A DNA stretch of 64,000 bases from an uncultured Rikenellaceae bacterium. Lineage in GTDB: Bacteria; Bacteroidota; Bacteroidia; Bacteroidales; VadinHA17. The translations under genes were made by a program, and so were the position numbers. This document shows positions 3,805 through 58,198 of this stretch, piece after piece (within the stretch, counting starts at the first letter, position 1; each line of letters starts with the position of its first letter). The stretch is from contig CAYSBL010000012.1 of NCBI GenBank assembly GCA_964429295.1, positions 1,646-65,645 on the forward strand. Direction: 5' to 3'. The notes under the pieces were generated by a model, which was not told where the DNA came from, did not search any database, and saw only the letters and a program-made list of their open reading frames with translations.

Positions 3805-3842
3805 GACTTAAGGTTTAATCGGATGTCTTTTATCAATGTTGC

Positions 3843-3915
3843 TTGTTACTGGTTACTGGCTTTGCCCGCCATAGCTTTAGCGGAGGCGGGTTGCTGGTTG
3901 CCCTGCGCCCTGCGC
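3843..3915. repeat. mosaic heptamer-repeat/hairpin element abutting the cydB stop codon
   Basis: TTACTGG x2 (3846-3859). Hairpin CCCGCC(3865-3870)/GGCGGG(3885-3890). Then GGGTTGCTGGTTGC (3888-3901) and CCTGCGC x2 (3902-3915). Shares exact strings with the elements at 47843-47905, 45408-45451 and 54488-54623. Confidence 0.7.
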
Positions 3916-5046
3916 CTAATAAACATGTCCTCCCTCCTGCAGTTCATCGCCGGTTATCCTTTTCCTGTTTATTGCTTTCCAGGCGTACCATATGTATGCA
4001 ACCACGAAAGGCACTATGAATGAAACGTACATCATGGTTTTAAGTGTAAAGAAGCTCGATGAGGCCTTGTCGATGGTCAGAGAGCTTCCCGGATCGGAAA
4101 CCGAAGGATAAAATGCAGTGCCGTTGAAGCCGGCAATAAGAAAGAGTGCCATGACTGCAAGGATTGTCCCGGTTCCTGTATACCAGATTGCGGCCCTGCC
4201 GGCTTTGAACAGAGCTGTTCCAATTCCGTAAAGGACACTTACCACTCCTGCGAGGAAGATTACCAGCACAAGCGGCATTTGCCAAAGGTTGTGAAGGTAC
4301 TTGAACTTCTCCATGGTGACTGCACCTGTGTTGCTGTCGTAGGCGAATCCTTCTGAGACAAGGAGTACTATTACGAAGAACAGGAAGAAAACCAGGAATG
4401 AAAGGGAATTCATCGCCAGTTTCCTTCTCGATCTTTCATAAAGATCTTCATCATCAACGGTATTGATAATATAGAGCAGGCCGTTTGTCCGGGCCAGGAA
4501 AAGCACTGCCAGCCCGAGTGCCAGGTTTCTTGCGCTGAGAAGAGCTTCAAGACCGTGCCAGGATGTTCCCCAGCTTACCTGGTTTACCTCATTGAGGCTG
4601 AACTGTGAGCCTGTGAAGAAAGTAGCCACTGCTGTTCCGATAAGAAAGGGGCCCAGTGAACCATTGATAAAAAGGAAAGTGTCGAAAGTTTTCTGGCCCA
4701 GGATGTTGGATGGTTTAGAACGGTACTCGTAAGCAATTGCCTGAATTATGAAGCTGAAAAGTATGGCAATCCAAACCCAGTAAGCTCCTCCGAAGCTCGC
4801 AGAATAAAAGAGGGGGAATGAAGCAAAGAAAGCGCCTCCGAAAGTGACCAGGGTGGTAAAGGTGAACTCCCATTTTCTTCCCATGGCATTTACCAGCATT
4901 GATTTCTGAAGATCGTTTTTCGGAAGGGAAAAAATCATTGATTGTCCGCCCTGGACAAACATCAGGAATACCAGCAGGCTTGCCAGAAGGGATATAATGA
5001 TCCACCAGTAGCCCTGCAGGAACATATGTGAAATAATTGTTGTCAT
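3916..5046 (-). CDS. cydB: cytochrome bd ubiquinol/menaquinol oxidase subunit II
   Basis: 376-aa polytopic membrane ORF directly downstream of cydA. N-terminus (YWWIIISLLASLLVFLMFVQGGQ) and length are typical of CydB. Confidence 0.92.
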   Translation of the reverse strand: MTTIISHMFLQGYWWIIISLLASLLVFLMFVQGGQSMIFSLPKNDLQKSMLVNAMGRKWEFTFTTLVTFGGAFFASFPLFYSASFGGAYWVWIAILFSFIIQAIAYEYRSKPSNILGQKTFDTFLFINGSLGPFLIGTAVATFFTGSQFSLNEVNQVSWGTSWHGLEALLSARNLALGLAVLFLARTNGLLYIINTVDDEDLYERSRRKLAMNSLSFLVFFLFFVIVLLVSEGFAYDSNTGAVTMEKFKYLHNLWQMPLVLVIFLAGVVSVLYGIGTALFKAGRAAIWYTGTGTILAVMALFLIAGFNGTAFYPSVSDPGSSLTIDKASSSFFTLKTMMYVSFIVPFVVAYIWYAWKAINRKRITGDELQEGGHVY

Positions 5047-23047: not shown

Positions 23048-23097
23048 TCCTCTTTAAAATCCACCCCTACCTCTCCGAGGAGGGGTCCGTTTCGACT

Positions 23098-23122
23098 CCC
23101 GCCCTGTGCCCTGAGCCCTGAG
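23098..23122 (-). repeat. heptamer array / G-quadruplex motif 22 nt downstream of the ccsBA stop (sense strand)
   Basis: The reverse strand reads CTCAGGG CTCAGGG CACAGGG CGGG. This gives GGGCTCAGGGCACAGGGCGGG, four G3 tracts with loops of 4, 4 and 1 nt. Confidence 0.6.
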
Positions 23123-23144
23123 CTATTATTCCCGGCTGCCGCTC

Positions 23145-26100
23145 TCACACTTTCTTCTCCCATTTCCTGTATTTCACCCGGGCCATTACAGCCAGCGAAA
23201 CAAGTGCAGCAACAGCTGCATAGACAAATAAAGGGACCGGGACCGGATCGCCTCCGGCATAAGAATGAAGTCCGGTAAGGTAATAGTTAACTCCGAAATA
23301 GGTCATAAGCACGGAGGAGAAGGCAAACATCGACAAGAGGTTAAAGGTGTAGATGTCCTTCATCCCGGGGATCATCCTGGCATGAATGACAAAGCTGTAA
23401 ATGATAATGGTTATCAGCGACCAGGTCTCCTTGGGATCCCATCCCCAGTACCGGCCCCACGATTCATTTGCCCATACTGCCCCCAGAAAGGTGCCGATTG
23501 TAAGCATATACAATCCTACGGTAAGAGATTTATAGTTGATGACCGTAAGATCGTCGATTGTTGATGATATACTTTCCAGGCTTTTTGCACCTGAGAGTGT
23601 CAGCAAAATCATGGCGATGACAGCAAGTATCGCTGAAAGTCCAAGGAATCCGTAACTGGCTGTGATGACAGAAACATGAAGGGTAAGCCAGTAAGACTGA
23701 AGAACGGGAACGAGGTTGGTTATTTCGGGATCCATGAAGCTCATGTGGGCCACAAGCAATGTCAGTCCTGAGAGAACTGCCGTGGCAGAAAGAGCAAATG
23801 GCGACCTGCTTCTGAAGAAAAACCCGGCCAGCAGTGTAACCCACGAGATGAATATCATTGATTCATACCCGTTACTCAATGGAGAGTGATCTGAGATATA
23901 CCAGCGTAAGCCGAGTCCCAAGGTATGAAAAAGGAATCCAGTGAATAGTATCCATCCCAGGATACCTGCAATAAAATGAGGTGATCTTTTCCCTTTTATT
24001 ACCATTAAGATCAACACTGCAAGGAGCAGAATTCCTGTGGCAAGATAAAAAGGAAAAAGTCTTTCAAAGATCAACGTCCTGTAATACAGGGATTCCGCCC
24101 TGATCCTGGTCGGTGATGGAAGTTCGTATGCAGTAAACCTCGACTGATATTCCCTCACAGATCCTGTAATCTGTCTGGCAATGGAAGCGTTTCCGCTCCT
24201 CAGGGCATCGGACAATACCGGGATTACGTTCGCAATAAACACCGAGTCATCCCTGCTGATCGCAGTTTTCAGGGCGTCATCGGGAGATCCCCAGTTCGTG
24301 GTTCCGTCGTGGAGGGGGAATATCCTGGTGAATCCTCCGGTATAGATCATGTAAATAATATTCACCCTTTCGTCAACCTTCATGACCTCCTTGTCGGTTT
24401 TTGTTCTTGCGGCTGCGGATTTTGAATAAGCTTCTTCCACGTTCTCTGAGAGTTTGTATTTTCCTGTCTGAAGGTCGACCAGCTCAGAAAATGAGGCATA
24501 GGAACCGGTGATCCCGATTATTTTTTGAAGATCACGGTTTGAAATCCTGATTACCTGTTCATCCTTCCAATGATCAAAATCGAGGTATATTCCAAGGAAC
24601 ACCTGCATCGGAGTCAGTCCACGGAATTTGTTTTCCCTTGTTACTTTTCTGAGTATGTCGTAACTAAGGGTGAAAAGAGGCTCGGTACGTCCCTTCTGGT
24701 CCTGTACGAGCACTTTACCGAATTCATCAGCAAGAGTCTTATCGGGAACAAGCTTCTGCGACCAGGCATTCAGCGAGCCTGCCATGGCAAACATAACCAG
24801 GGCGGCGGCCGATTTTCTTCTTATAGCCGAATCCCAGAATACCGCATGGACTGTATTGAATACCGATTTCCTGTTCAGAAGCGAGAGCAGGATGAAGAGG
24901 ATTAGAGTTCCGTAACCCGTATAGGTTACCAGCATTCCTGCCGGATCATGGTTGACTGAAAGTATGGTGCCCATCTCATCCTGATCATACGATGACTGAT
25001 AGAACCTGTATCCATTGTACTTCAGGATGTTGTTCATGAAAATAGTAAAAGGTTTCTCGATACCGGCGCTGTTGTCGATTAAGACAATATCGCTTTTGTA
25101 CCCCGAGGGGCTGTTCGATCCAGGGTATCTGTCGAGAATGAAGTCATTCAGGCGCAGTGAAAAGGGAAGAGTGATCTCATGCGATCCGTAGGTAATTTCG
25201 ATGATCCTGTCATCAACCACAGCTGATCCTGATGAGAAAGGCTGATTCTGGCTATCCCACAGTACTATTTCACCTGCAGGTCTTCCGCCTGCAAGAATGT
25301 TGAAAATAAAGGCATTTCTTCCAGTTTCCATGTTTTCCATGTCAGCTGAAATGATCCTGGTATCACCGCTCATTTCCATTTGCTGGGGAACAATACTGAC
25401 ATCACTTATCCTGAAGATCTTCATCGCCTCGAAGCGGGCGGTTCCCCCTTTACTGAAAGAAACGGATTCACCAGCCATCATGCCTTCACGGACGAATGGC
25501 CGGGTGGAAGTAAGATAGAACAATGATGAATCATATGTTATGGACACGTCGGCTGGATCATCGGAATGAAAGCCTACAGAGATCTCCCCTATTTTAACAG
25601 ATTCTCCCTCTCTCAGGATATATGTCTGTCTTGCAAGACTATCGGCTGCCACAAATGAAATTATGGCTCCGGCTCCTGTCATACCCTTATCTACAACTTC
25701 AGCTGCATTCACTACAATTCTTGCCAGGGTTATTTCAAAATCAGCGCCACCTTCCCGGATCTTCCTGCTGAAGTTACCGGCCGATTTCATGCTCATATAG
25801 TATTTTGATGAACTCTGGTTCAGGATCGTTCCCGAAGCATCTTTAAGCTTATAGCCTATGTACCTGTCGGCCGAATAGCATTTGTCCTGTTCCTCTCCCT
25901 CGCGTATGTGTATAGATCCCTCCCATCCGGCATAGCGGGTAATTGCTGCCCCGGAAAGGATCAGGATGAACGAGAGATGGAAAAGGAGTATTGTCAGTTT
26001 CTGTTTCCTGTAGAGCTTATATTCAATTACCTGGCCAGCAAGGTTGAGGGCCAGTAAGAAGAGTATAAGTTCGAACCACCTTGTATCATAAACAAAGTTA

Positions 26101-26219
26101 TAGGCAGCCGAGGAACCGTAGTCATTTTCAATGAAAGTGGCAGCCGCCATCGAGGCAGCGCTTACAACAAACAACATCCCCATGAAAAACGGGGAAACAA
26201 GGAATTTCAGGATTCTCAC
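23145..26219 (-). CDS. cytochrome c biogenesis protein, fused ResB(CcsB)-CcsA (System II CcsBA)
   Basis: 1024 aa with a GTG start. The N-terminal ResB-like region has a large periplasmic domain. The C-terminal CcsA part carries the tryptophan-rich WWD motif WGRYWGWDPKETW. Confidence 0.88.
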   Translation of the reverse strand: MRILKFLVSPFFMGMLFVVSAASMAAATFIENDYGSSAAYNFVYDTRWFELILFLLALNLAGQVIEYKLYRKQKLTILLFHLSFILILSGAAITRYAGWEGSIHIREGEEQDKCYSADRYIGYKLKDASGTILNQSSSKYYMSMKSAGNFSRKIREGGADFEITLARIVVNAAEVVDKGMTGAGAIISFVAADSLARQTYILREGESVKIGEISVGFHSDDPADVSITYDSSLFYLTSTRPFVREGMMAGESVSFSKGGTARFEAMKIFRISDVSIVPQQMEMSGDTRIISADMENMETGRNAFIFNILAGGRPAGEIVLWDSQNQPFSSGSAVVDDRIIEITYGSHEITLPFSLRLNDFILDRYPGSNSPSGYKSDIVLIDNSAGIEKPFTIFMNNILKYNGYRFYQSSYDQDEMGTILSVNHDPAGMLVTYTGYGTLILFILLSLLNRKSVFNTVHAVFWDSAIRRKSAAALVMFAMAGSLNAWSQKLVPDKTLADEFGKVLVQDQKGRTEPLFTLSYDILRKVTRENKFRGLTPMQVFLGIYLDFDHWKDEQVIRISNRDLQKIIGITGSYASFSELVDLQTGKYKLSENVEEAYSKSAAARTKTDKEVMKVDERVNIIYMIYTGGFTRIFPLHDGTTNWGSPDDALKTAISRDDSVFIANVIPVLSDALRSGNASIARQITGSVREYQSRFTAYELPSPTRIRAESLYYRTLIFERLFPFYLATGILLLAVLILMVIKGKRSPHFIAGILGWILFTGFLFHTLGLGLRWYISDHSPLSNGYESMIFISWVTLLAGFFFRSRSPFALSATAVLSGLTLLVAHMSFMDPEITNLVPVLQSYWLTLHVSVITASYGFLGLSAILAVIAMILLTLSGAKSLESISSTIDDLTVINYKSLTVGLYMLTIGTFLGAVWANESWGRYWGWDPKETWSLITIIIYSFVIHARMIPGMKDIYTFNLLSMFAFSSVLMTYFGVNYYLTGLHSYAGGDPVPVPLFVYAAVAALVSLAVMARVKYRKWEKKV

Positions 26220-43209: not shown

Positions 43210-43263
43210 GTCGTGCAGGTCGTGCAGGTTATGCAGGTCGTGCAGGTCGTGCAGGCCGTGCGG
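43210..43263. repeat. 9-mer tandem array x6 (GTCGTGCAG)
   Basis: GTCGTGCAG GTCGTGCAG GTTATGCAG GTCGTGCAG GTCGTGCAG GCCGTGCGG. Begins 11 nt after the yqeY-like stop codon. Confidence 0.85.
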
Positions 43264-45334: not shown

Positions 45335-45407
45335 GATACGAATTGTCTAAGGTTGATAATAAGAAATATTAATACATATTGTTTGTGCGATTGAAATCAT
45401 TTTGAAG

Positions 45408-45451
45408 TTGCTGGTTGCTGGCGGTACGTGGCCAACTGCCAACTGCCAACT
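45408..45451. repeat. heptamer arrays TTGCTGG x2 and GCCAACT x3 flanking a short spacer
   Basis: TTGCTGG TTGCTGG CGGTACGTG GCCAACT GCCAACT GCCAACT. Lies 20 nt downstream (sense) of the stop of the TIM-barrel gene. The arms are only partly complementary (about 4-5 of 7 per heptamer). Confidence 0.8.
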
Positions 45452-47829: not shown

Positions 47830-47842
47830 TTAATAATTAAAG

Positions 47843-47905
47843 TTGCTTCTTGCTTGCTTTGCCCTCTGAACTTCAGCGAAAGAGGGTTGCTGGTTGCTGC
47901 TTGCT
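47843..47905. repeat. mosaic heptamer-repeat/hairpin element, homologous to the one at 3843-3915
   Basis: TTGCTTC TTGCTTG CTTTGCC. Hairpin GCCCTCT(47861-47867)/AGAGGGT(47881-47887). Then GGTTGCT GGTTGCT GCTTGCT. Exact shared strings with 3843-3915 are GCTTTGCCC and GGGTTGCTGGTTGC. ACTGAAG ACTGAAT follows at 47928-47941. Confidence 0.75.
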
Positions 47906-48930: not shown

Positions 48931-48942
48931 CCGGCATCATTG

Positions 48943-51675
48943 ATGAATTTAAGGATAATAACCGGAATAATCCTGCTGTCAGTATCTCCCCTGGTCTATT
49001 CGCAGGAGGGATATCATGTGGACTGGGAATATTCCGGTCAGCCGCTTGAAATGTTTATCAGGCAGGCGGAATCAGTTCATCCTGTTAAATTCTTTTACAG
49101 GAGTGAATGGATAGCCGGCATTGTTCTAGGCAATTATCCGGGAAAAACAACTTTAGGGGCGATTCTCGACACACTATTCGCCGGCCGGAAAATTTATCAT
49201 TATGAACGCCCGGGAGGTAACATAATCCTGACCGGTGAATATGAAGTCAGGCTTCCGGGCCGGAAGAATACCGGTAAAGGGACTTTTATCCCGGCTGCCC
49301 CCGGCGGGGATGACAGTGAAACAGGCATTGCATCCGGGTCCATGGTGTTGAATATTGGAAATCCGTCTGCCGCACGGCTGCCGGGCAACGTCACTTTGTC
49401 GGGCTGGATAAGCAACCGCGACACAAAGGAAAATGTAGCAGGAGTGACTGTCCAGGTGCCCGCACTGTCAGCCGGTACTATTTCAAATGCTTACGGTTTT
49501 TACACTATATCGGTTCCCAGGGGCAGGTACTCCCTGAAGTTCACTTTTATCGGGATGAAGGAAAGGATGGTTGACGTCAATCTGTACGACAACGGGGAGC
49601 TGAATATCGATATGGCGAGTGTGCTCATTCCTTTGAAAGAGGCGGTGATTACGGCAGAAAAGGACATCACGCTTCAGAGGCCTGGCAGCGGCATCGAAAA
49701 GATAAGTGCAGCTTCATTCAGGTCAATGCCTTCGGCTATGGGCGAATCGGACATCACAAAAAGTCTTCTGCTGCTGCCCGGAGTCAATACCGTAGGTGAA
49801 GGATCTGCCGGGTTCAATGTTAGGGGAGGCTCTGCCGACCAGAACCTGGTGCTGCTTTACGGGGCTCCTCTTTACAGCACCTCTCATTTCTTCGGTTTCT
49901 TCTCAGCCGTCAATCCCGATATAATCAAAGACGTAACCCTTTACAAAGGGAGTATTCCTGCAAAGTATGGCGGCAGGCTTGCTTCAGTTCTTGACATATC
50001 ACCCCGGGACGGCAGCAGAAGCGAGTTTTCGGGCAGCGCCGGCATCAGTCCTGTTACAGCACATTTTACTATTGAAGGCCCGTTAATTGCGGACACGCTG
50101 TATTATCTTATTACCGGCCGCAGGACCTATTCGAACTGGATCCTGAGACTCCTTGAAGACCCGTCGCTACGGGACAGCAGGGCCATGTTCCAGGACTTTA
50201 ACGCAAGATTAGCCTGGGATCGGGGAAAGAAGGACAGGATTGATCTCTCGGGGTATTTGAGCAATGACTCGTTCAGGCTCAACTCCGACACAACCTACAA
50301 ATATATGAACAGTATTGTCTCTCTGCGATGGCGACACTATTTCAACAGCCGTTTCTTCTCCTCCCTGACCTTAAGCAACAGCAATTACAATTATAACATA
50401 TCAAGCATAAGGGTGCCGGAGGAAGCTTTTTCATTAAGGCACAGGATTAACACGACCGGTCTGAAGGTCGATTTTAACTGGTTCAGGGGAAGGAACGAGA
50501 TCAACTTCGGAGCTGACCTGATGAGGCACAGTGTCGTCCCCGGCGACTATCTGCCTGGGGATAAAGCCTCGCTGGTGATCCCCAATTCGATTCAGAGACA
50601 AAAGGCGCTGGAAACTGCAGTCTGGCTCGAAGATAATTTCACTGTCACCGGGTCTTTGTCGGTAAGCGGAGGAATAAGGCTGGGAACTTTCCATGCCCTT
50701 GGCCCCCAGACAGTCATATCCTACAACCCAGGCTTTCCCCGGGATATTGACTCTGTGAGCGACACACTTACTTTTGCCGGGAATAAGATATACAGGAGTT
50801 ATGCAAGGCCCGAATACCGGTTTTCGGCGAACTTCAGAACCGGGATCAATAGTTCTTTCAAGCTCAGCTACAATCACACCAACCAGTATCTTCACCTGCT
50901 GACCAACACCACAGCGATATCGCCAACCGACACCTGGAAGCTGAGCGATTACCATCTAAGGCCGCAGTCGGCAGACCAGTTTGCGGCGGGATTCTATAAA
51001 ATGCTGAATAAAAACCGTATAGAAGCCTCTGTTGAGATCTACTACAAGAACATAGAAAATATGATCGATTTCAAGGGTGGCACCGATCTTATCATGAATG
51101 AATATATTGAAAGAGACCTCGTGAATGTGAGGGGAAAAGCTTACGGGATGGAAATGCTTCTCAGGAAACCCGAAGGAAGGATAAGATGGAGTGCCGGGTA
51201 TACCTTGTCGAAAATCCTTGTAAAGAACAAGACAAGTTTCGAAGAGGAACTGATAAACGCGGGCAACTGGTTTCCGGCCAGCTTCGACAGACCTCATGAC
51301 CTGATACTTACCTTTAATTATATCCACTCGCGCCGGGTAAGCCTTTCAGCAAATTACAACTACACTTCAGGTCGTCCGGTCACCTATCCGGTTTCGACCT
51401 ATTCGATAGGCGATGTGGTGCTGATGCACTATTCGGACAGGAACAAATACAGGCTTCCATATTATTCGAGGCTCGATGTTTCTGTGAGAATTAGCGGCGA
51501 CCTCAGGTCGAAAAAGCTGGCAAATCCTTATTGGGTCTTTTCTATCTACAATGTAACCGGAAGAAAAAATGTTTATTCAGTATATTTTGAAAACGAAAGA
51601 GGCATGGTGAGGGGCTACTACCTTTCGGTTTTCGGCAGACCCATTCCGTCACTTTCACTGAACTTCGATTTCTGA
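48943..51675 (+). CDS. TonB-dependent receptor with N-terminal extension and CarboxypepD_reg-like domain
   Basis: ORF 48940 is TTG, so ATG 48943 is taken. Signal peptide; an ~100-aa N-terminal domain that looks STN-like by eye (tentative); CarboxypepD_reg segment LSGWISNRDTKENVAGVTVQV. Plug (MGESDITKSLLLLPGVNTVGEGSAGFNVRGG) and a C-terminal barrel ending in F. Confidence 0.88.
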   Translation: MNLRIITGIILLSVSPLVYSQEGYHVDWEYSGQPLEMFIRQAESVHPVKFFYRSEWIAGIVLGNYPGKTTLGAILDTLFAGRKIYHYERPGGNIILTGEYEVRLPGRKNTGKGTFIPAAPGGDDSETGIASGSMVLNIGNPSAARLPGNVTLSGWISNRDTKENVAGVTVQVPALSAGTISNAYGFYTISVPRGRYSLKFTFIGMKERMVDVNLYDNGELNIDMASVLIPLKEAVITAEKDITLQRPGSGIEKISAASFRSMPSAMGESDITKSLLLLPGVNTVGEGSAGFNVRGGSADQNLVLLYGAPLYSTSHFFGFFSAVNPDIIKDVTLYKGSIPAKYGGRLASVLDISPRDGSRSEFSGSAGISPVTAHFTIEGPLIADTLYYLITGRRTYSNWILRLLEDPSLRDSRAMFQDFNARLAWDRGKKDRIDLSGYLSNDSFRLNSDTTYKYMNSIVSLRWRHYFNSRFFSSLTLSNSNYNYNISSIRVPEEAFSLRHRINTTGLKVDFNWFRGRNEINFGADLMRHSVVPGDYLPGDKASLVIPNSIQRQKALETAVWLEDNFTVTGSLSVSGGIRLGTFHALGPQTVISYNPGFPRDIDSVSDTLTFAGNKIYRSYARPEYRFSANFRTGINSSFKLSYNHTNQYLHLLTNTTAISPTDTWKLSDYHLRPQSADQFAAGFYKMLNKNRIEASVEIYYKNIENMIDFKGGTDLIMNEYIERDLVNVRGKAYGMEMLLRKPEGRIRWSAGYTLSKILVKNKTSFEEELINAGNWFPASFDRPHDLILTFNYIHSRRVSLSANYNYTSGRPVTYPVSTYSIGDVVLMHYSDRNKYRLPYYSRLDVSVRISGDLRSKKLANPYWVFSIYNVTGRKNVYSVYFENERGMVRGYYLSVFGRPIPSLSLNFDF

Positions 51676-51676
51676 C

Positions 51677-52807
51677 ATGAACAGGTTTATACTTATACTT
51701 GCAGCTATCCTGTTTGCGGCCGCAGCCGGATGCACGATCGAGTTCATACCCGGACAGGATGAAAATGATAAAACACTTGTTGTGGAGGGAATGATCACCG
51801 ACCAGGACAGGGTGAACCGGATAAGGATTTCACGATCACAGCCCATTGGTGAAATGCTGAGAAATAAGATACCGGTTACCGGAGCGCTGGTCAGCATTAC
51901 TGATAATGAAGACAATATCACTTCACTGACGGAATCCCCTCCCGGAACCTATTGCACCGATTCGCTTCAGTTCAGGGGCCGGGTGGGAGCATCGTATTCA
52001 CTCCGGATATTCGTTGGAGGCAGTGAATACGAGACTGATTTTATGGAGATGAAACCGGTTCCGGCAATCGATTCGCTTTATTACGAAAAAGTCCGTATAA
52101 ACAACGATAAGGATACTATTTATATCGACGAGGGAGCAAGTATTTATGCCGATACCTGGGATCCATCCGGGAAATGCCTTTTCTACAGATGGGATTACAT
52201 AGAAACATGGGAATACCGGATCCCCTATGCCGTTACAAAAAAGGTTTGCTATATCACCGAGCGGTCCGACCGGATCCTCATAAAGAACACATCACAATTC
52301 AGCCAGGCGAGAGTGACCAGATTCCCGGTGACTTTCATAACCCACGAGACTGACAGGCTTAAAGAGAGGTACAGCATACTTCTGAGGCAATACTCCCTCA
52401 ATGAACAGGAATATAACTTCTGGAAAAGAGTCAGTGATGTATCTCAGAACGTTGGAAACCTGTATGACGTAACACCGTCATTCATCCCGGGCAACATAAG
52501 ATCATGCACTGATCCCGGGGAGACCGTTCTGGGCTGGTTCAGCGTTTCAGCAGTATCGGAAAAGAGGCTTTTCATAAAAGATCACTTCTACGGGTTGCCT
52601 CATTTCTTCACATATTGCGCCACCGACACCCTGGGAGGGTCGCTTCCCTCAACGGGATTTGAAACTGATTACTGGGTCATAGAGGATTTCAGCGATGAAG
52701 TGCCTCCTTTCTGGATAATAACCACTTACAGGGAGTGCGCTGATTGCACCATCAGAGGAACAAGCGAAATGCCGTCATTCTGGCGCGATTATCTCAGGGA
52801 CAAATGA
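51677..52807 (+). CDS. DUF4249-like lipoprotein (partner of the TonB-dependent receptor)
   Basis: Lipobox LFAAAAGC. TLVVEGMITDQDRVNRIRISRS is typical of DUF4249. Starts 1 nt after the receptor stop. Confidence 0.65.
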   Translation: MNRFILILAAILFAAAAGCTIEFIPGQDENDKTLVVEGMITDQDRVNRIRISRSQPIGEMLRNKIPVTGALVSITDNEDNITSLTESPPGTYCTDSLQFRGRVGASYSLRIFVGGSEYETDFMEMKPVPAIDSLYYEKVRINNDKDTIYIDEGASIYADTWDPSGKCLFYRWDYIETWEYRIPYAVTKKVCYITERSDRILIKNTSQFSQARVTRFPVTFITHETDRLKERYSILLRQYSLNEQEYNFWKRVSDVSQNVGNLYDVTPSFIPGNIRSCTDPGETVLGWFSVSAVSEKRLFIKDHFYGLPHFFTYCATDTLGGSLPSTGFETDYWVIEDFSDEVPPFWIITTYRECADCTIRGTSEMPSFWRDYLRDK

Positions 52808-54468
52808 TTAAGACCATAATTACACCTGTACTACTGATGCTTCTTACAGCATTTCCGGCTGCCCGGGCAACCGGAGAAGAGGTTTTGATTCTTCATACCG
52901 ACCGCCGGATGTATGTTGCAGGAGAAATCATGTGGTTCAGCATTTATGTAAGCAACTTTCAGAACGGCCTGTCAACGGCAGGAAGCAGTGTGGTCAGTGT
53001 GGAACTGGTCAATCCATGGAACATGCCCGTGGCTCAATCGCGTTTCGCCCTTTCAGACGGAAGGGGAAAAGGAGATCTTATCATCCCCGACACCCTCAGT
53101 TCCGGCACCTATCTGCTAAAGGCTTATGGCGGTCAGATAGGGAACACCCCGGCAGAACGATGCTTTATCCAGAAAATCGGGATATACAATCCATTAGCAG
53201 GCGAAGAATATTTCCGGATTACACGGAATAAATCAGGTTCCGGTTTATCTTCTGGTTTTGATTTTTCAGAAATCGAAATAATGACCGACAGTGTAAAAGA
53301 AAGAAGGGAAAGTATTAATGTAAGACTAAATACCAATTCAGGGCCTGCCGGTCTTAGTATTTCAATAGTACCCGCCGGAATTTCAGCCGGCAGTCCTGAA
53401 GCCGGACTGATGGCTGAACCAGGATATTCATCAGGATCTTTTAAGTCCGGGAATTCCGGTCATTATCTGTCCGGTTCCTTAAGATACCGTAATCCGGTCA
53501 CAACTGATTCCTCCCGTTTCCTGTATGCTTCTGTGAGAGGAAAAACTGCGGAATTCTATCATGCACGGATTGGCGTCAACGGCCGGTTCGACCTGCGCCT
53601 GCCAATAGACAGCAGGGAAAGGGTGCTTATAATCCAGCCCGGGAACGCCGGAAGCAATGTAGCACTTGAAATCGATCCATCCTTTACGTCTTTCCATGAA
53701 CGGATGGCCCTGACCCGCGACACACTTGATGAATTTCAGCGTTCAGTCTTTTCCCGGCTGAGTTTTAATTTTCAGGCTGCCAGGATTTATGGAATCCCGC
53801 TTTTCGAAAACCAACCGGAGAAAACAGAACGAGCCGCCAGGACCAGGAGGTTTTACGGTATTCCGGAGATGGAAGTCCATCTTGACGATTACATCAGGCT
53901 TCCTGTTATGCAGGAGGTGTTTTTCGAGCTGCTGCCGGGCATCATACTCAGGAACAAGGACTCCGGATATGAAATTAAAATCACAAATCCCCTTACCGGG
54001 AAGTATTATGACGAGCCTCCCCTGGTTATGATCGACGGAGTCATTATCAACGACCTTAACATTCTTGCCGGACTCGATCCCGCTAAGGTAGAAAGGATTG
54101 AAGTTGTGATGACTCCGTATCTGACTGGAGACCTGATACTTCACGGAATTGTTAATGTAATAACACTGGAAGGCGATTTCGGTGAGATGACAATGCAGGA
54201 TTATGCAGCAATACTGCCCTACAGGTCCGTGGAAGAGCCAAAGGTTTTCATCCATCCGGATTATTCGGATTCCACCTTCGGTTCAGACCATATACCCGAC
54301 CTAAGGAACACCCTTTACTGGGAGCCGTCTTTGAAAACCGATAACCGTGGCAGAGCTGAGGTTGTTTTCCGAACATCCGATCAGCCGGGGCTGTATGAGA
54401 TAACAGTTTTCGGGCTCACTGAATCCGGAAAATGGGTATATGGCTCCAGGACTTTCAGGGTGGATTGA
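52804..54468 (+). CDS. secreted protein with N-terminal MG2-like beta-sandwich and C-terminal Plug-like segment (function unknown)
   Basis: ORF 52744 trimmed to ATG 52804 (an ATGA overlap with the DUF4249 stop). Signal peptide MIKTIITPVLLMLLTAFPAARA. PPLVMIDGVIINDLNILAGLDPAKVERIEVV resembles the TonB-receptor plug core. Confidence 0.55.
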   Translation: MIKTIITPVLLMLLTAFPAARATGEEVLILHTDRRMYVAGEIMWFSIYVSNFQNGLSTAGSSVVSVELVNPWNMPVAQSRFALSDGRGKGDLIIPDTLSSGTYLLKAYGGQIGNTPAERCFIQKIGIYNPLAGEEYFRITRNKSGSGLSSGFDFSEIEIMTDSVKERRESINVRLNTNSGPAGLSISIVPAGISAGSPEAGLMAEPGYSSGSFKSGNSGHYLSGSLRYRNPVTTDSSRFLYASVRGKTAEFYHARIGVNGRFDLRLPIDSRERVLIIQPGNAGSNVALEIDPSFTSFHERMALTRDTLDEFQRSVFSRLSFNFQAARIYGIPLFENQPEKTERAARTRRFYGIPEMEVHLDDYIRLPVMQEVFFELLPGIILRNKDSGYEIKITNPLTGKYYDEPPLVMIDGVIINDLNILAGLDPAKVERIEVVMTPYLTGDLILHGIVNVITLEGDFGEMTMQDYAAILPYRSVEEPKVFIHPDYSDSTFGSDHIPDLRNTLYWEPSLKTDNRGRAEVVFRTSDQPGLYEITVFGLTESGKWVYGSRTFRVD

Positions 54469-54487
54469 AACCAAAGGCTGGACAAAG

Positions 54488-54623
54488 GGCGCAGGGCGCA
54501 GGGCACAGGGGTCAGAGCTCAGGGCACAGGGCACAGAGCGCAGGTCCCAATATTGTCCCCGGTGTCTTTTATTCTGCTGTCCTGCGCCTTGTGTCTTGCG
54601 TCTTGTGTCTTGCCTCTTCTTCC
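54488..54623 (+). repeat. heptamer-phased G-rich arm (8 x GGCGCAG-like) and CU-rich arm (6 x CTGCGCC/TTGTGTC-like) forming a long G-U-dependent hairpin, with a G4 motif
   Basis: Left arm 54502-54543 pairs with right arm 54582-54623 at 35 of 42 positions (26 Watson-Crick plus 9 G-U), with a 38-nt loop. G4 motif GGGCGCAGGGCGCAGGGCACAGGGG at 54487-54511. Begins 19 nt after the upstream stop codon. Confidence 0.75.
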
Positions 54624-54676
54624 ATGAGCCGTCATTTCAAATTTCTGATTCCGGAACATTTTCATGTTTTATTCGG

Positions 54677-54684
54677 TATATTTG
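54677..54684 (+). promoter_or_regulatory. candidate -7 box for the decarboxylase beta-subunit gene
   Basis: TATATTTG is an exact TAnnTTTG match, 48 nt upstream of the ATG at 54732. Confidence 0.35.
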
Positions 54685-54689
54685 TCGAT

Positions 54690-54706
54690 TCCGTATCGGA
54701 TACGGA
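54690..54706. promoter_or_regulatory. perfect 17-bp palindrome just downstream of the -7 box (operator or 5'-UTR hairpin)
   Basis: TCCGTATC-G-GATACGGA has perfect 8+8 arms. Confidence 0.4.
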
Positions 54707-54731
54707 GTGAAGAATTTAAGCAAAACCTGAA

Positions 54732-55868
54732 ATGGAATTCTTACTTGATGGCATAACCAGCATTACCTGGCAGCAGATAGTGATGTGGATCACCGGCTTC
54801 GTCCTCATCTACCTCGCAATAGACAAGAAGCTTGAACCTCCCTTGCTTCTCCCCATGGGATTCGGGGCAATCCTGGTCAACCTGCCCCTGTCAGGGGTAT
54901 TGAACCAGACACTTCCCGGCATAGGTGAGGTAAGGGGAATTATCGACTGGATGTTCAGTGTGGGAATCGAAGCTTCTGAGGCGATGCCCATTCTGCTTTT
55001 TATAGGCATCGGTGCAATGATAGATTTTGGCCCGCTCCTCTCCAATCCCAGGCTTCTGCTCTTCGGGGCAGCAGCCCAGTTCGGGATCTTTGCAACAGTA
55101 ATCATTGCAACCCTTCTTGGTTTTGATCTCAGGGACGCTGCTTCCATCGGAATAATAGGTGCTGCCGACGGACCCACGTCAATCCTTGTCTCTCAGGTTT
55201 TGAAAAGCCGGTTCATCGGACCTATTGCCATCGCCGCATATTCATACATGGCACTGGTACCGATAATTCAGCCGTTTGCCATCAGGCTCTGCACAACGGA
55301 AAAGGAAAGGAAGATAAGGATGAAGTATAATCCGAAGAGTGTTTCACAGCTTACCAGAATACTCTTTCCAATTGCGGTCACGATAATTGCCGGCCTGGTT
55401 GCTCCGGCCTCGATTGCACTTGTGGGATTCCTAATGTTCGGTAACCTGATAAGGGAATGCGGAGTGCTCAGATCCTTATCAGAATCGGCACAGAAGGAAC
55501 TTGTCAACCTGATCACCCTTCTGCTGGGCATCACCATTGCAGCAAGCATGAAGGCGGAGTCATTCGTTTCGCTTCAGACTATCCTTATCATGCTGCTTGG
55601 ACTTGTGGCGTTTATCTTTGATACCATTGCCGGCGCAACCTTTGCAAGGATCCTCAATCTTTTCCTTAAGGAGAAGATTAATCCCATGGTAGGCGCTGCA
55701 GGTATATCGGCTTTCCCGATGTCGTCGCGCGTGATCCAGAGGATGGGCCTTGAAGCTGACCCGCAGAACCACCTTCTAATGCATGCGGCCGGAGCTAATG
55801 TCTCGGGACAGATTGCATCGGTTATAGCGGGCGGTGTGGTGATAAGTCTTGTACCCGGACTAATGTAG
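54732..55868 (+). CDS. sodium ion-translocating decarboxylase subunit beta (OadB/MmdB/GcdB family)
   Basis: 378 aa. The N-terminus ITWQQIVMWITGFVLIYLAIDKKLEPPLLLPMGFGAILVN and the polytopic body are typical of the Na+-pumping decarboxylase beta chain. Confidence 0.92.
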   Translation: MEFLLDGITSITWQQIVMWITGFVLIYLAIDKKLEPPLLLPMGFGAILVNLPLSGVLNQTLPGIGEVRGIIDWMFSVGIEASEAMPILLFIGIGAMIDFGPLLSNPRLLLFGAAAQFGIFATVIIATLLGFDLRDAASIGIIGAADGPTSILVSQVLKSRFIGPIAIAAYSYMALVPIIQPFAIRLCTTEKERKIRMKYNPKSVSQLTRILFPIAVTIIAGLVAPASIALVGFLMFGNLIRECGVLRSLSESAQKELVNLITLLLGITIAASMKAESFVSLQTILIMLLGLVAFIFDTIAGATFARILNLFLKEKINPMVGAAGISAFPMSSRVIQRMGLEADPQNHLLMHAAGANVSGQIASVIAGGVVISLVPGLM

Positions 55869-56265: not shown

Positions 56266-58125
56266 TCATTTTATTTTCACGGGCCTGATCATATTCTCGG
56301 GAGCGAGGATCTGATCGAGTTTTTCCTTTGACAGCAATCCCCTTTCCAGGACGAGGGAATAAACAGACAGGTTCTTCTCCAGGGCTTCCCTGGCAATTGA
56401 ATTCAGGTCCTGATATGCTATATAGGGAACCAGTGCTGTGATTATCCCGATGCTGTTCTGGACCAGGTCCCGGCATCGTTCCTCGTTGGCACTAATCCCG
56501 TCGATACAGCGATGGCGGAGTGTGTTCATCCCGTTTATCAGCATCTCGACTGATTCGAATAAACAATGGACTATTACTGGTTCGAACACATTAAGCTCGA
56601 GCTGACCTCCTTCGGAAGCCAGGGTCACGGTAAGATCATTCCCTATCACCTTGAAAGCTATCTGGTTGACAACCTCAGGAATGACCGGATTCACCTTGCC
56701 GGGCATTATTGAAGAACCGGGCTGTTGGGGAGGAAGGTTGATCTCATTAAAACCCGCCCTCGGTCCTGACGATAGTAGTCTGAGATCGTTGCAGATCTTT
56801 GAAAGCTTGACTGCCAGCCTCTTCACAGCAGATGAATACATCACGAATGCACCTGTGTCCTGAGTCGCCTCTACAAGATTGGATGCAAGAACAAGGTTCA
56901 GCCCGGAGATCTTCCTGAGGTATTTTACTACCAGTTCCGCATATCCGGGTTCGGTGTTGATTCCGGTGCCGATGGCCGTTGCACCCATATTGATCTCAAG
57001 GAAGAATTTTGAATTTAGATTGAGCCGCTCAATTTCCTCCTCAAGGGTGACCGCATATGCCTCGAACTCCTGTCCGAGAGTCATCGGGACAGCATCCTGA
57101 AGCTGGGTTCTGCCCATCTTTATGATGTGGGAAAAATCCCTTCCCTTCTTCCTGAACGATGCAACAAGCCTTGTAAGAACAGCAATCAGGTTTTTGTTTG
57201 AATTGAACAGTGCAATCTTGATAGCAGTCGGATAAACGTCATTCGTCGACTGCGAAAGGTTCACATGGTTATTCGGGTGACAATATTTGTATTCTCCCCT
57301 CTTGCGTCCCAGTATTTTAAGCGCACGGTTGGCAATCACCTCATTGGCATTCATGTTGGTCGACGTACCTGCTCCTCCCTGTATCATGTCGACCACAAAA
57401 TGATTGTGATATTTCCCGTATCTTATTTCCCTGCAGGCCATGACTATTGCATCCTTTATGGCAGGGTCGAGGAGTCCGAGCCGGAAGTTTGCTTCGGCTG
57501 CCGATTCCTTAACCATCGCCAGCGCCTCAATAAGTGAGGGGAAAAAACTTAAAGTGATGCCCGTGATATTGAAGTTCTCCACCGCTCTCAGGGTCTGAAT
57601 TCCGTAATATGATTCATAAGGCACCTCCCTTTCACCTAACAGATCGCTTTCTGTCCTGGTCTTTCCGGATACATACTGGGCAGCAGGATTCATCATCCGG
57701 GTATTGGCATTGCGCATTCGCCTCGATACGATTCCTGTTATATTTGAGAGTATCTTAAGTGTGGTACCGGCATTGTATCCGAAGAATTCGCGGTTAACAT
57801 CAAGAAGAATGGTCTTCCTTGTTACTCTCGAGGATGTTGAATGCACTGATCCCGGATCGAGAATTCCTTCGCCGAGGAAATCTCCCCTGCCGAAAATGGC
57901 CAGCCGGACTTCAACACCGTAAGAATCCCTCTTAAAGAGTTCAACTTCACCGTCAAATATTATGAAGATATCTTCCCTGGGACTGTTTTCCCTGAAGATG
58001 ATCTCTCCGGCTTCGCAATGTTTCTCAGTAACACTCCGTGAAAGCTGGCCCAGCTCTGCTTCATCGAGGTTCCTGAAAAGTTCAATGTTTCTTAGGAAAT
58101 CAAGGATTGTGCTTTTCTTGATCAT
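56266..58125 (-). CDS. aspA: aspartate ammonia-lyase fused to an N-terminal cyclic-nucleotide-binding-like domain
   Basis: ORF 56266..58197 starts at TTG; ATG 58125 gives MIKKSTILDFLRNIELFRNLDEAEL. Residues ~1-150 look like a cNMP-binding beta-roll (FRENSPREDIFIIFDGEVELF...GDFLGEGIL). The remainder is aspartase/fumarase class II with TNMNANEVIAN and the SS-loop GSSIMPGKVNP. Confidence 0.9.
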   Translation of the reverse strand: MIKKSTILDFLRNIELFRNLDEAELGQLSRSVTEKHCEAGEIIFRENSPREDIFIIFDGEVELFKRDSYGVEVRLAIFGRGDFLGEGILDPGSVHSTSSRVTRKTILLDVNREFFGYNAGTTLKILSNITGIVSRRMRNANTRMMNPAAQYVSGKTRTESDLLGEREVPYESYYGIQTLRAVENFNITGITLSFFPSLIEALAMVKESAAEANFRLGLLDPAIKDAIVMACREIRYGKYHNHFVVDMIQGGAGTSTNMNANEVIANRALKILGRKRGEYKYCHPNNHVNLSQSTNDVYPTAIKIALFNSNKNLIAVLTRLVASFRKKGRDFSHIIKMGRTQLQDAVPMTLGQEFEAYAVTLEEEIERLNLNSKFFLEINMGATAIGTGINTEPGYAELVVKYLRKISGLNLVLASNLVEATQDTGAFVMYSSAVKRLAVKLSKICNDLRLLSSGPRAGFNEINLPPQQPGSSIMPGKVNPVIPEVVNQIAFKVIGNDLTVTLASEGGQLELNVFEPVIVHCLFESVEMLINGMNTLRHRCIDGISANEERCRDLVQNSIGIITALVPYIAYQDLNSIAREALEKNLSVYSLVLERGLLSKEKLDQILAPENMIRPVKIK

Positions 58126-58198
58126 TGCCCTGGCTTTAATTAGTAAGTGAAGAACAGGTTTAAAAACAAAGATATTCGGATTTTTATACCGCTGCAAT

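Follow-up and report, generated by a model that had tools for sequence, protein, structure and literature searches.

A copy-variable pair of convergent heptanucleotide arrays downstream of an MG2-like gene in an uncultured Rikenellaceae bacterium

The element described here lies in a 64,000-nucleotide stretch of contig CAYSBL010000012.1 (forward strand, positions 1,646 to 65,645; assembly GCA_964429295.1) from an uncultured bacterium of the family Rikenellaceae, order Bacteroidales. This stretch is referred to below as the window, and all coordinates are counted from its first nucleotide. At 54488-54623, in the intergenic spacer between a gene for an MG2-like protein and a gene for a decarboxylase subunit, an array of G-rich heptamers is followed at a short distance by an array of pyrimidine-rich heptamers with which it could pair in plus-strand RNA. 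The features of the spacer and its two flanking genes are as follows.

52804-54468, plus strand: MG2-like protein of 554 amino acids (weak Pfam match to MG2; gene calls on identical contigs).
54466-54468, plus strand: TGA stop codon of the MG2-like gene (from the list of open reading frames, ORFs).
54432-54710, plus strand: ORF of 92 amino acids called through the arrays (ATG to stop; called by gene-calling pipelines on every contig of the species).
54487-54511, plus strand: canonical G-quadruplex (G4) motif GGGCGCAGGGCGCAGGGCACAGGGG in the 5' array (regular expression G3+N1-7 x4; G4Hunter score 1.56).
54488-54543, plus strand: 5' array of eight G-rich heptamers (unit listing; Tandem Repeats Finder, period 7, 8.4 copies at 54486-54544).
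54544-54581, plus strand: unique 38-nt spacer GTCCCAATATTGTCCCCGGTGTCTTTTATTCTGCTGTC, the loop region of the predicted hairpin (sequence and minimum free energy structure).
54582-54623, plus strand: 3' array of six pyrimidine-rich heptamers (Tandem Repeats Finder, period 7/14, array called at 54579-54618; pairing count).
54732-55868, plus strand: OAD_beta, beta subunit of a Na+-translocating decarboxylase.

Unit by unit, both arrays (eight heptamers 5', six 3') match the listing in a first-pass annotation made from the sequence alone. The 5' array begins 18-19 nt past the MG2-like stop, on the coding strand and with 188 nt to the next start, and runs GGCGCAG, GGCGCAG, GGCACAG, GGGTCAG, AGCTCAG, GGCACAG, GGCACAG, AGCGCAG, with a GGG spanning the unit junction in six of the eight units. 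The 3' array runs CTGCGCC, TTGTGTC, TTGCGTC, TTGTGTC, TTGCCTC, TTCTTCC, and its recurrent unit TTGYGTC (equivalently GTCTTGY) is the wobble complement of GGCRCAG. When 54502-54543 is set against 54582-54623, 26 Watson-Crick pairs, 9 G-U pairs and 7 mismatches result, so that a recount agrees with the 35 of 42 paired positions reported earlier for the same register. In all nine wobble pairs the G sits in the 5' arm. Because every one of them arises from a T at just two unit positions of the TTGYGTC repeat, position 1 (five units) and position 6 (four units), the nine G-U pairs amount to no more than two mutational states that homogenisation of the array has spread, and not to nine independent events.

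In our interpretation the element joins two heptanucleotide microsatellites, (GGCNCAG)8 and (TTGYGTC)~5, placed convergently after the MG2-like gene, and we give this reading a probability of roughly 0.7. As observed, it is a copy-variable, non-conserved pair of heptamer arrays in a 3'-untranslated region (3'-UTR) or intergenic position. The variation is seen within the species itself. Comparison of 20 public contigs whose flanking proteins are identical to those of the window (contigs and loci compared carry L numbers) revealed at least four alleles.

Allele 1: the window type.
Allele 2: GGGGTCAG changed to GGGCTCAG, together with a flanking single-nucleotide polymorphism (L002, L003, L136, L138).
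Allele 3: an extra, third GGCGCAG unit (L140).
Allele 4: at least 15 units in the 5' array and five instead of six in the 3' array (L007, L008, L010; 5' count from L007 and L008).

The copy numbers of the two arms thus vary independently (from 8 to at least 15 in the 5' arm, from 6 to 5 in the 3' arm) and in whole 7-nt units, with four or more G3 tracts kept in all alleles of the species. Nine of the 20 contigs terminate at or within the array. The same alleles decide the status of the 92-amino-acid ORF. An uninterrupted ATG-to-stop frame is present and annotation pipelines call it on each of the identical contigs, which could be taken to mean that the region encodes a protein. However, alleles differing by whole 7-nt units would shift the frame, and we therefore reject a coding role; the ORF is not coding. 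Its start also lies within the upstream gene, no Pfam match for it is on record, and the region it occupies is missing from orthologous spacers, leaving the coding alternative with practically no probability.

Conservation was assessed by finding homologues of the MG2-like protein, fetching their contigs and aligning the spacers three-way. Gene order is kept in the orthologous loci (Plug-like, DUF4249, MG2-like, OAD_beta, Fer2_BFD, lyase), and the element is not. In loci L131-L134, with 64% protein identity, the spacer measures 71 nt and holds no array whatsoever. In L135 (62% identity), the spacer is 203 nt long and includes, all in same-strand orientation, GGGTTCAGGGCGCAGG, a small hairpin, (GGCNCAG)4 and (GGYRTGA)5; a pyrimidine arm is missing and the fold is not significant (z -0.29). 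In L130, a 76% relative, a remnant GGCACAGGGTGAAGG is all that is found. Compensatory change in orthologous spacers, which had been proposed as a check on the hairpin, was accordingly not seen, the spacers being without the element, non-folding or reduced to a remnant. Since orthologous spacers either lack the element or carry different, non-folding arrays, it is not conserved. The part of the spacer that is shared lies closer to the decarboxylase gene.

54655-54731, plus strand: sole part of the spacer conserved in orthologues, and not part of the element (three-way alignment).
54677-54684, plus strand: promoter-like -7 box TATATTTG, of the TAnnTTTG type.
54690-54706, plus strand: perfect 17-nt palindrome TCCGTATCGGATACGGA in the 5'-UTR of the OAD_beta gene.

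TAnnTTTG is the consensus of Bacteroides promoters, and by its likeness to that consensus we take TATATTTG to be a candidate -7 box. Both arrays are outside the two genes and at least about 50 nt upstream of the box, and they may affect the promoter context upstream of it. Where the window has TCCGTATCGGATACGGA, L131 has a different palindrome (CTGATTC...GAATCAG), and the differing palindromes at this position suggest an operator or a 5'-UTR hairpin with covariation.

Folding energies of the element, on both strands and as RNA and DNA, were compared with those of dinucleotide-shuffled sequences.

Plus strand as RNA: -76.9 kcal/mol, z -4.32, 0 of 200 dinucleotide shuffles as good.
Minus strand as RNA: -52.7 kcal/mol, z -0.29.
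Plus strand as DNA: -31.0 kcal/mol, z -1.9.
Minus strand as DNA: -26.5 kcal/mol, z -0.8.

Against these controls, the prediction of a hairpin that G-U pairing confines to plus-strand RNA holds; folded as DNA, the element shows only a weak strand asymmetry. Pairing of the two arms gains about -29 kcal/mol over the arms folded separately. An alternative hypothesis is that the hairpin is a selected, strand-specific RNA structure of the 3'-UTR, serving as a U-tract-independent terminator, as an insulator against read-through before the decarboxylase promoter or as a block to 3' exonucleases, in which G-U pairs would preserve the helix in RNA without creating a perfect palindrome in DNA. The contrast between the RNA strands, the weak folding of both DNA strands, the placement of G in the 5' arm in nine of nine wobbles, the energy gained over separate arms and the persistence of the fold in the expanded allele are all consistent with this hypothesis. 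Yet the order of the units proved irrelevant: with heptamers permuted within each arm, the energy was -77.3 +/- 4.3 kcal/mol compared with the observed -76.9, and 105 of 200 permutations were at least as good. Fold energy scales with the copy number of both arms. The energy of the hairpin is set only by which unit families are juxtaposed and by their copy count, and a purine-rich block followed by a pyrimidine-rich one yields a sense-strand bias by composition alone. Nor do the orthologues favor selection, with no element in the syntenic L131-L134 spacer and arrays without a hairpin in L135.

The shuffle z-score itself is best read with caution. For repeat arrays, dinucleotide shuffling sets a lenient null: the (GGCACAG)22 array of L074 lacks a pyrimidine arm and still, by pairing with itself, reaches z -4.5, though only on the sense strand. 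Among 38 GGCNCAG arrays in related genomes most fold no better than shuffles; the minority that do include some without a pyrimidine arm. The notion that G-rich arrays generally pair with a downstream arm was rejected on these grounds.

A dedicated role in termination or RNA processing fares no better. A terminator scan of 54000-55200 returned no terminator-like site (hairpin plus T-tract), in keeping with the earlier remark that no U-tract follows the element; the sequence directly 3' of the 3' arm is CATGAGCCGTCATTTC. Canonical hairpin-plus-T terminators do occur elsewhere in the window, so the genome uses them; the lack of a U-tract at the element speaks against the selected-terminator hypothesis. 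In contrast to an intrinsic terminator, the predicted structure has a stem of ~40 bp with 9 G-U pairs and 7 mismatches, a loop of ~38 nt and no U-tract. Rfam gave no match in the window at gathering score and, under permissive settings, only sub-threshold microRNA-precursor models, which are generic long hairpins (E 0.1-3); a search of eight related loci yielded nothing relevant. Given the lack of conservation, the independent copy numbers of the arms, the irrelevance of unit order and the origin of the wobbles in two unit positions, the suggestion that this is a dedicated structured RNA, either a terminator or a processing/stability element, was not borne out.

Heptamer repetition is a wider property of this DNA. 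Period 7 is the top tandem period in the window, with seven runs compared with 0-2 for other periods between 4 and 12, and three of the arrays in the 64 kb are of the GGCNCAG type. Besides the target, the following arrays were recorded.

3837-3916: period-7 array.
23101-23123: period-7 array.
45407-45451: period-7 array.
47840-47905: period-7 array.
43210-43261: 9-mer array.

The target, the array at 23101-23123 and a two-unit GCCCTGC array at 3900-3916 (GCCCTGN being the reverse complement of GGCNCAG) all lie 0-21 nt past a same-strand stop codon. The 9-mer array likewise starts 0-21 nt after a same-strand stop, and the same 9-mer, GTCNTGCAR, follows GGCNCAG arrays in other Bacteroidales metagenome-assembled genomes (MAGs; L015, L076, L107). 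Units of the other short arrays in the window are GTTACTG/GTTGCTG, GCCCTGC, GCCCTGW, GCCAACT and GTCGTGCAG.

Beyond the window, runs of three consecutive CAGGGCN units were sought in a single genome of each species, and at least 119 loci were returned, a sample that is ascertained, as are the metagenome scans, on the pattern searched. The window's own genome did not appear among the loci listed; the best of the listed matches to it, in L019, has about 80% identity along 125 nt. Among the matches listed, to which the counts in this paragraph refer, hosts are drawn from Bacteroidales, Rikenellaceae, Prolixibacteraceae, Lysobacterales, Acidobacteriota, Thermoanaerobaculia, Chloroflexota, Actinomycetota, Alphaproteobacteria and cyanobacteria, among others; Phormidium and Nodularia contigs, too, carry GGCNCAG arrays. 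Arrays most often have four units (67 arrays, compared with 17 of five units), a mode that partly reflects ascertainment by a pattern needing at least three units. A complementary array lies 20-110 nt downstream of 15 arrays, always with the G-rich array first and the C-rich array second, and in no case in reverse order. At low-GC loci, 16 arrays follow a same-strand stop at no more than 26 nt and no array comes as close as 30 nt to an opposite-strand ORF, the downstream ORF usually being much farther away, with distances measured to simple longest-ORF calls, which are crude. In 238 kb of Bacteroidota loci, period 7 is dominant even after removal of the ascertained arrays; 46 arrays with diverse units besides GGCNCAG were counted there, and different arrays are often concatenated within one spacer.

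Arrays of GTCTTGY, the unit of the 3' arm, form a widespread family of their own, present on at least 120 metagenome contigs. Among the matches listed, 0 of 124 GTCTTGY arrays lie within 200 nt of a GGCNCAG array, and several are paired with an inverted purine-rich array of their own, (CAAGACR)n. Loci L192, L195, L202, L204 and L187 share the arrangement (CAAGACR)n - AGAGAAGAG...CTCTTCTCT - (GTCTTGY)n, in which the purine-rich arm always comes first, as it does in GGCNCAG pairs. The idea that the 3' arm is a mere decayed complement of the 5' arm is therefore only partly tenable, since GTCTTGY is an independent family that was never beside GGCNCAG in the 124 listed cases. The same zero count weighs against a selected hairpin, for which four other Bacteroidales loci (L015, L019, L076, L107), where GTCTTG-containing 8- and 9-mer arrays come after GGCNCAG, can be cited in support. 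Taken with the folding results, we regard a selected strand-specific hairpin as unlikely.

A further question is whether GGCNCAG is a special unit common to many phyla. Composition-matched control heptamers in viral contigs argue otherwise: ACGGGCN was found at 23 loci, GCAGGCN (in which the G-tract is broken) at 45 and NCGGGAC at 17, compared with 38 for CAGGGCN. With three control heptamers about as common there, a special cross-phylum status of GGCNCAG was rejected; its presence in many phyla calls for no unit-specific factor and fits a generic process that makes heptamer arrays.

Repeats of this kind have been described before. Rehm et al. (2015, PLoS One; PMC4692102) reported G-rich heptamer repeats, in Xanthomonas with the unit GGGAATC and in Nostoc with GGGGA(C/T)T; about 90% are intergenic, and the arrays have 2-26 units, four being clearly preferred. 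In 70-75 cases per genome, two arrays converge from opposite strands, with competition between stem-loop and G4, and array length at shared loci differs extensively between Xcc and Xac. The repeats were shown by circular dichroism to form G4s; no function was identified and no regulatory role found, and phase variation was judged unlikely for this class (PMC4692102). The element in the window resembles these repeats in its 7-nt unit with a G3 tract, its intergenic position, its variable copy number with a mode of four across the class, its placement close to a stop on the same strand, its convergent partner (38 nt downstream here) and the difference in length among close relatives at one locus. 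It differs in its unit, GGGCNCA, in its host, a member of the Bacteroidales at about 47% GC, and in its partner arm, a T-rich wobble version (TTGYGTC) that leaves only plus-strand RNA to pair well; G4 formation was shown in vitro there, whereas here it is predicted from the motif and the G4Hunter score of 1.56. Every sequence-level trait of the Rehm class that was testable was found in the element, which belongs to this known class of G-rich heptamer simple sequence repeats; what is new is the unit GGGCNCA, the host lineage and the wobble-degenerate partner arm. A stop-proximal G-rich array with a convergent partner and competition between hairpin and G4 was thus already on record (PMC4692102), and the configuration does not single out a dedicated RNA.

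Other heptamer systems are comparable in part. A Nostoc preprint describes heptamer repeats with at most modest, unexplained effects on expression. MacGregor (2015; PMC4679880) described assemblages of intergenic heptamer direct repeats (TAACTGA and others) in Bacteroidetes, cyanobacteria and Beggiatoaceae, missing in close relatives with the same gene order and with contigs ending within the repeats. We count the element in the window among these assemblages as well. As in those assemblages, different heptamer arrays are concatenated here, the spacers of relatives are shorter and repeat-free, and contigs break in the repeats; TAACTGA, in contrast, is A/T-rich and lies mostly just upstream of starts in forward orientation, whereas the present array is G-rich and follows a stop. 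No paper on heptanucleotide repeats in Bacteroidales turned up in a literature search. The short tandemly repeated repetitive sequences of cyanobacteria, in families defined by the units CCCCAGT, TTGGTCA and CAACAGT, are also tandem heptanucleotide arrays dispersed in intergenic DNA; their units and hosts are different, and the comparison is one of shared period only.

The overlap of the 5' array with a G4 motif raises the alternative that the G-rich array alone is functional, with a DNA or RNA G4 past the stop modulating transcription, R-loops or mRNA fate, and that the pyrimidine arm is incidental. The motif at 54487-54511 fits G3+N1-7 x4 as first noted, and the presence of a G4 motif that would compete with the hairpin is upheld. 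Just two such motifs exist in the 64 kb, both within GGCNCAG arrays, the second being as follows.

23098-23118, minus strand: G4 motif in a GGCNCAG array (regular expression).

In support of a G4 function, the modal four units across phyla match the four G-tracts that a G4 takes, every allele retains at least four G3 tracts, and GGGAATC and GGGGAYT repeats, which occupy the same positions, form G4s in vitro (PMC4692102). Many co-occurring heptamer arrays, however, have no G-tract at all, GCAGGCN, with its G-tract broken, equals GGCNCAG in frequency among viral contigs (45 compared with 38 loci), and the mode of four is partly produced by the search pattern of three or more units. Orthologues lack the array, and Rehm et al. 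(PMC4692102) identified no regulatory role. We consider a G4 function improbable for this locus.

The inverted-repeat architecture and the presence or absence of the element among related genomes could also be explained by a miniature mobile element, similar to MITEs (miniature transposable elements with inverted repeats), repetitive extragenic palindromic (REP) sequences or bacterial interspersed mosaic elements, with terminal inverted repeats built of heptamers. A precedent for this exists in a Lysobacterales MAG, where several inverted heptamer pairs share the inner sequence GCTCTTGACCTGCTGGGCC, suggesting a dispersed family there. For the element in the window, however, an exact search of the 38-nt spacer core in metagenome contigs of the JGI gave 0 matches, and hence neither evidence of dispersal nor further alleles. 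There is no second copy of the composite in the window and no target-site duplication in the alignment with an empty site; the arms differ in unit family and length, and they vary by whole 7-nt units, as slippage predicts. A mobile origin is thus very improbable. With respect to the Lysobacterales, inverted (GGCNCAG)n...(CTGNGCC)n pairs occur at L039, L062 (two sites), L096 and L114, and also at L020; an inner sequence TCAAGAGC ... GCTCTTGACCTGCTGGGCC is common to several loci of one genome, and these pairs look like a dispersed REP/MITE-like family in that lineage.

Returning to the microsatellite interpretation, we propose slipped-strand mispairing in the course of replication as the source of the arrays and of their turnover, a process that would favor 7-nt units in many bacteria; published work cited in PMC4692102 ascribes the preference for this unit length to the footprint of the polymerase. 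The 3' arm could have acquired its composition when one or two C-to-T unit variants spread through the array or when the GTCTTGY family was recruited, and either route would account for the G-U asymmetry in place of nine selected wobbles. Because it lies on the sense strand just past a stop codon, the region is probably transcribed with the upstream gene, and its RNA could then fold either as a long G-U-rich hairpin or as a G4. Both potentials are real and generic to the unit families involved. Any effect they have, whether as a barrier to exonucleases at the 3' end or as a block to read-through toward the decarboxylase promoter, would likely be dispensable and tunable by copy number, and not a conserved function.

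Several points weigh against this interpretation. The hairpin of the window copy is strongly strand-specific (z -4.3 compared with -0.3), and a good fold persists in the expanded allele (L007, z -6.9). Since arrays can pair in any register, a change in copy number spares the hairpin, and variability by itself is no argument against function. The regularities described above across the class are unexplained by slippage, so that a function of the class as a whole may exist, although the distances to ORFs and the composition of the scanned samples carry the weaknesses given with them. Such a function might lie in a 3'-UTR device, widespread but so far overlooked in Bacteroidales, Lysobacterales, Acidobacteriota and other phyla, that consists of stop-proximal, coding-strand G-rich heptamer arrays, a possibility we regard as distinctly unlikely. 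In that event the arrays could act as a copy-number-tuned RNA switch between G4 and hairpin that sets mRNA 3'-end stability or read-through, and the element in the window could be a refinement in which the partner arm was converted to a G-U-only complement (GTCTTG opposite CAGGGC). If true, a partner arm of this kind would keep the RNA helix while abolishing the DNA cruciform and removing the G4 of the opposite strand.

The surroundings of the element add some further observations. The MG2-like gene closes a cluster whose preceding members are as follows.

First gene of the cluster: protein of 231 amino acids.
48940-51675: receptor-like protein with CarboxypepD_reg and Plug domains.
51677-52807: DUF4249 protein.

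The first-pass annotation was right to place the element between a stop codon and the next promoter, with both flanking genes on the plus strand, but it named the Plug-like gene as the upstream neighbor; that neighbor is the MG2-like gene, two genes downstream of the Plug-like one. On the other side of OAD_beta, a 643-amino-acid protein (56266-58197, minus strand) combines cNMP_binding, Lyase_1 and FumaraseC_C, i.e., a cyclic-nucleotide-binding part and a class II fumarase/aspartase-type lyase, and this fusion is kept in orthologous loci.

Two other structured motifs accompany heptamer arrays. A small hairpin with the conserved loop RWAGCTTYAGCGRA, flanked by heptamer arrays, occurs at 3865-3890 and 47862-47886 in the window, at ~4683-4712 of L135 and at ~150-178 of L013. 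Its stems differ with compensatory changes (CCCGCC/GGCGGG, CCCTCT/AGAGGG, AAGCC/GGCTT), and the loop motif has two occurrences in the window where 0.19 would be expected; a small element that is structured or bound by protein is one possibility. In Bacteroidales MAGs (L015, L069, L076, L077, L110), CCCCTCC-N4-GGAGGGG followed by TGGGGGTGGGTT-like sequence lies downstream of G-rich arrays. In the window, CCCCTCCTCGGAGAGGTAGGGGTGG followed by ATTTTAAAG at 23061-23085 (minus strand), after the gene at 23145-26219, has no Rfam match and is possibly the real terminator of that gene.

For annotation, arrays of this type are a trap in three ways: they break short-read assemblies (9 of 20 contigs here), they yield spurious ORF calls such as the 92-amino-acid "gene" at 54432-54710, and they produce impressive RNA-folding z-scores without being conserved RNAs. 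For the biology of these repeats, the present locus and its relatives extend the G-rich heptamer-repeat class to the Bacteroidales and several other phyla, with the new unit GGGCNCA. If the regularities of the class do reflect a function, the natural allelic series of this species (8 compared with at least 15 units), together with the contrast between a wobble and a perfect partner arm, would make it a convenient test case.

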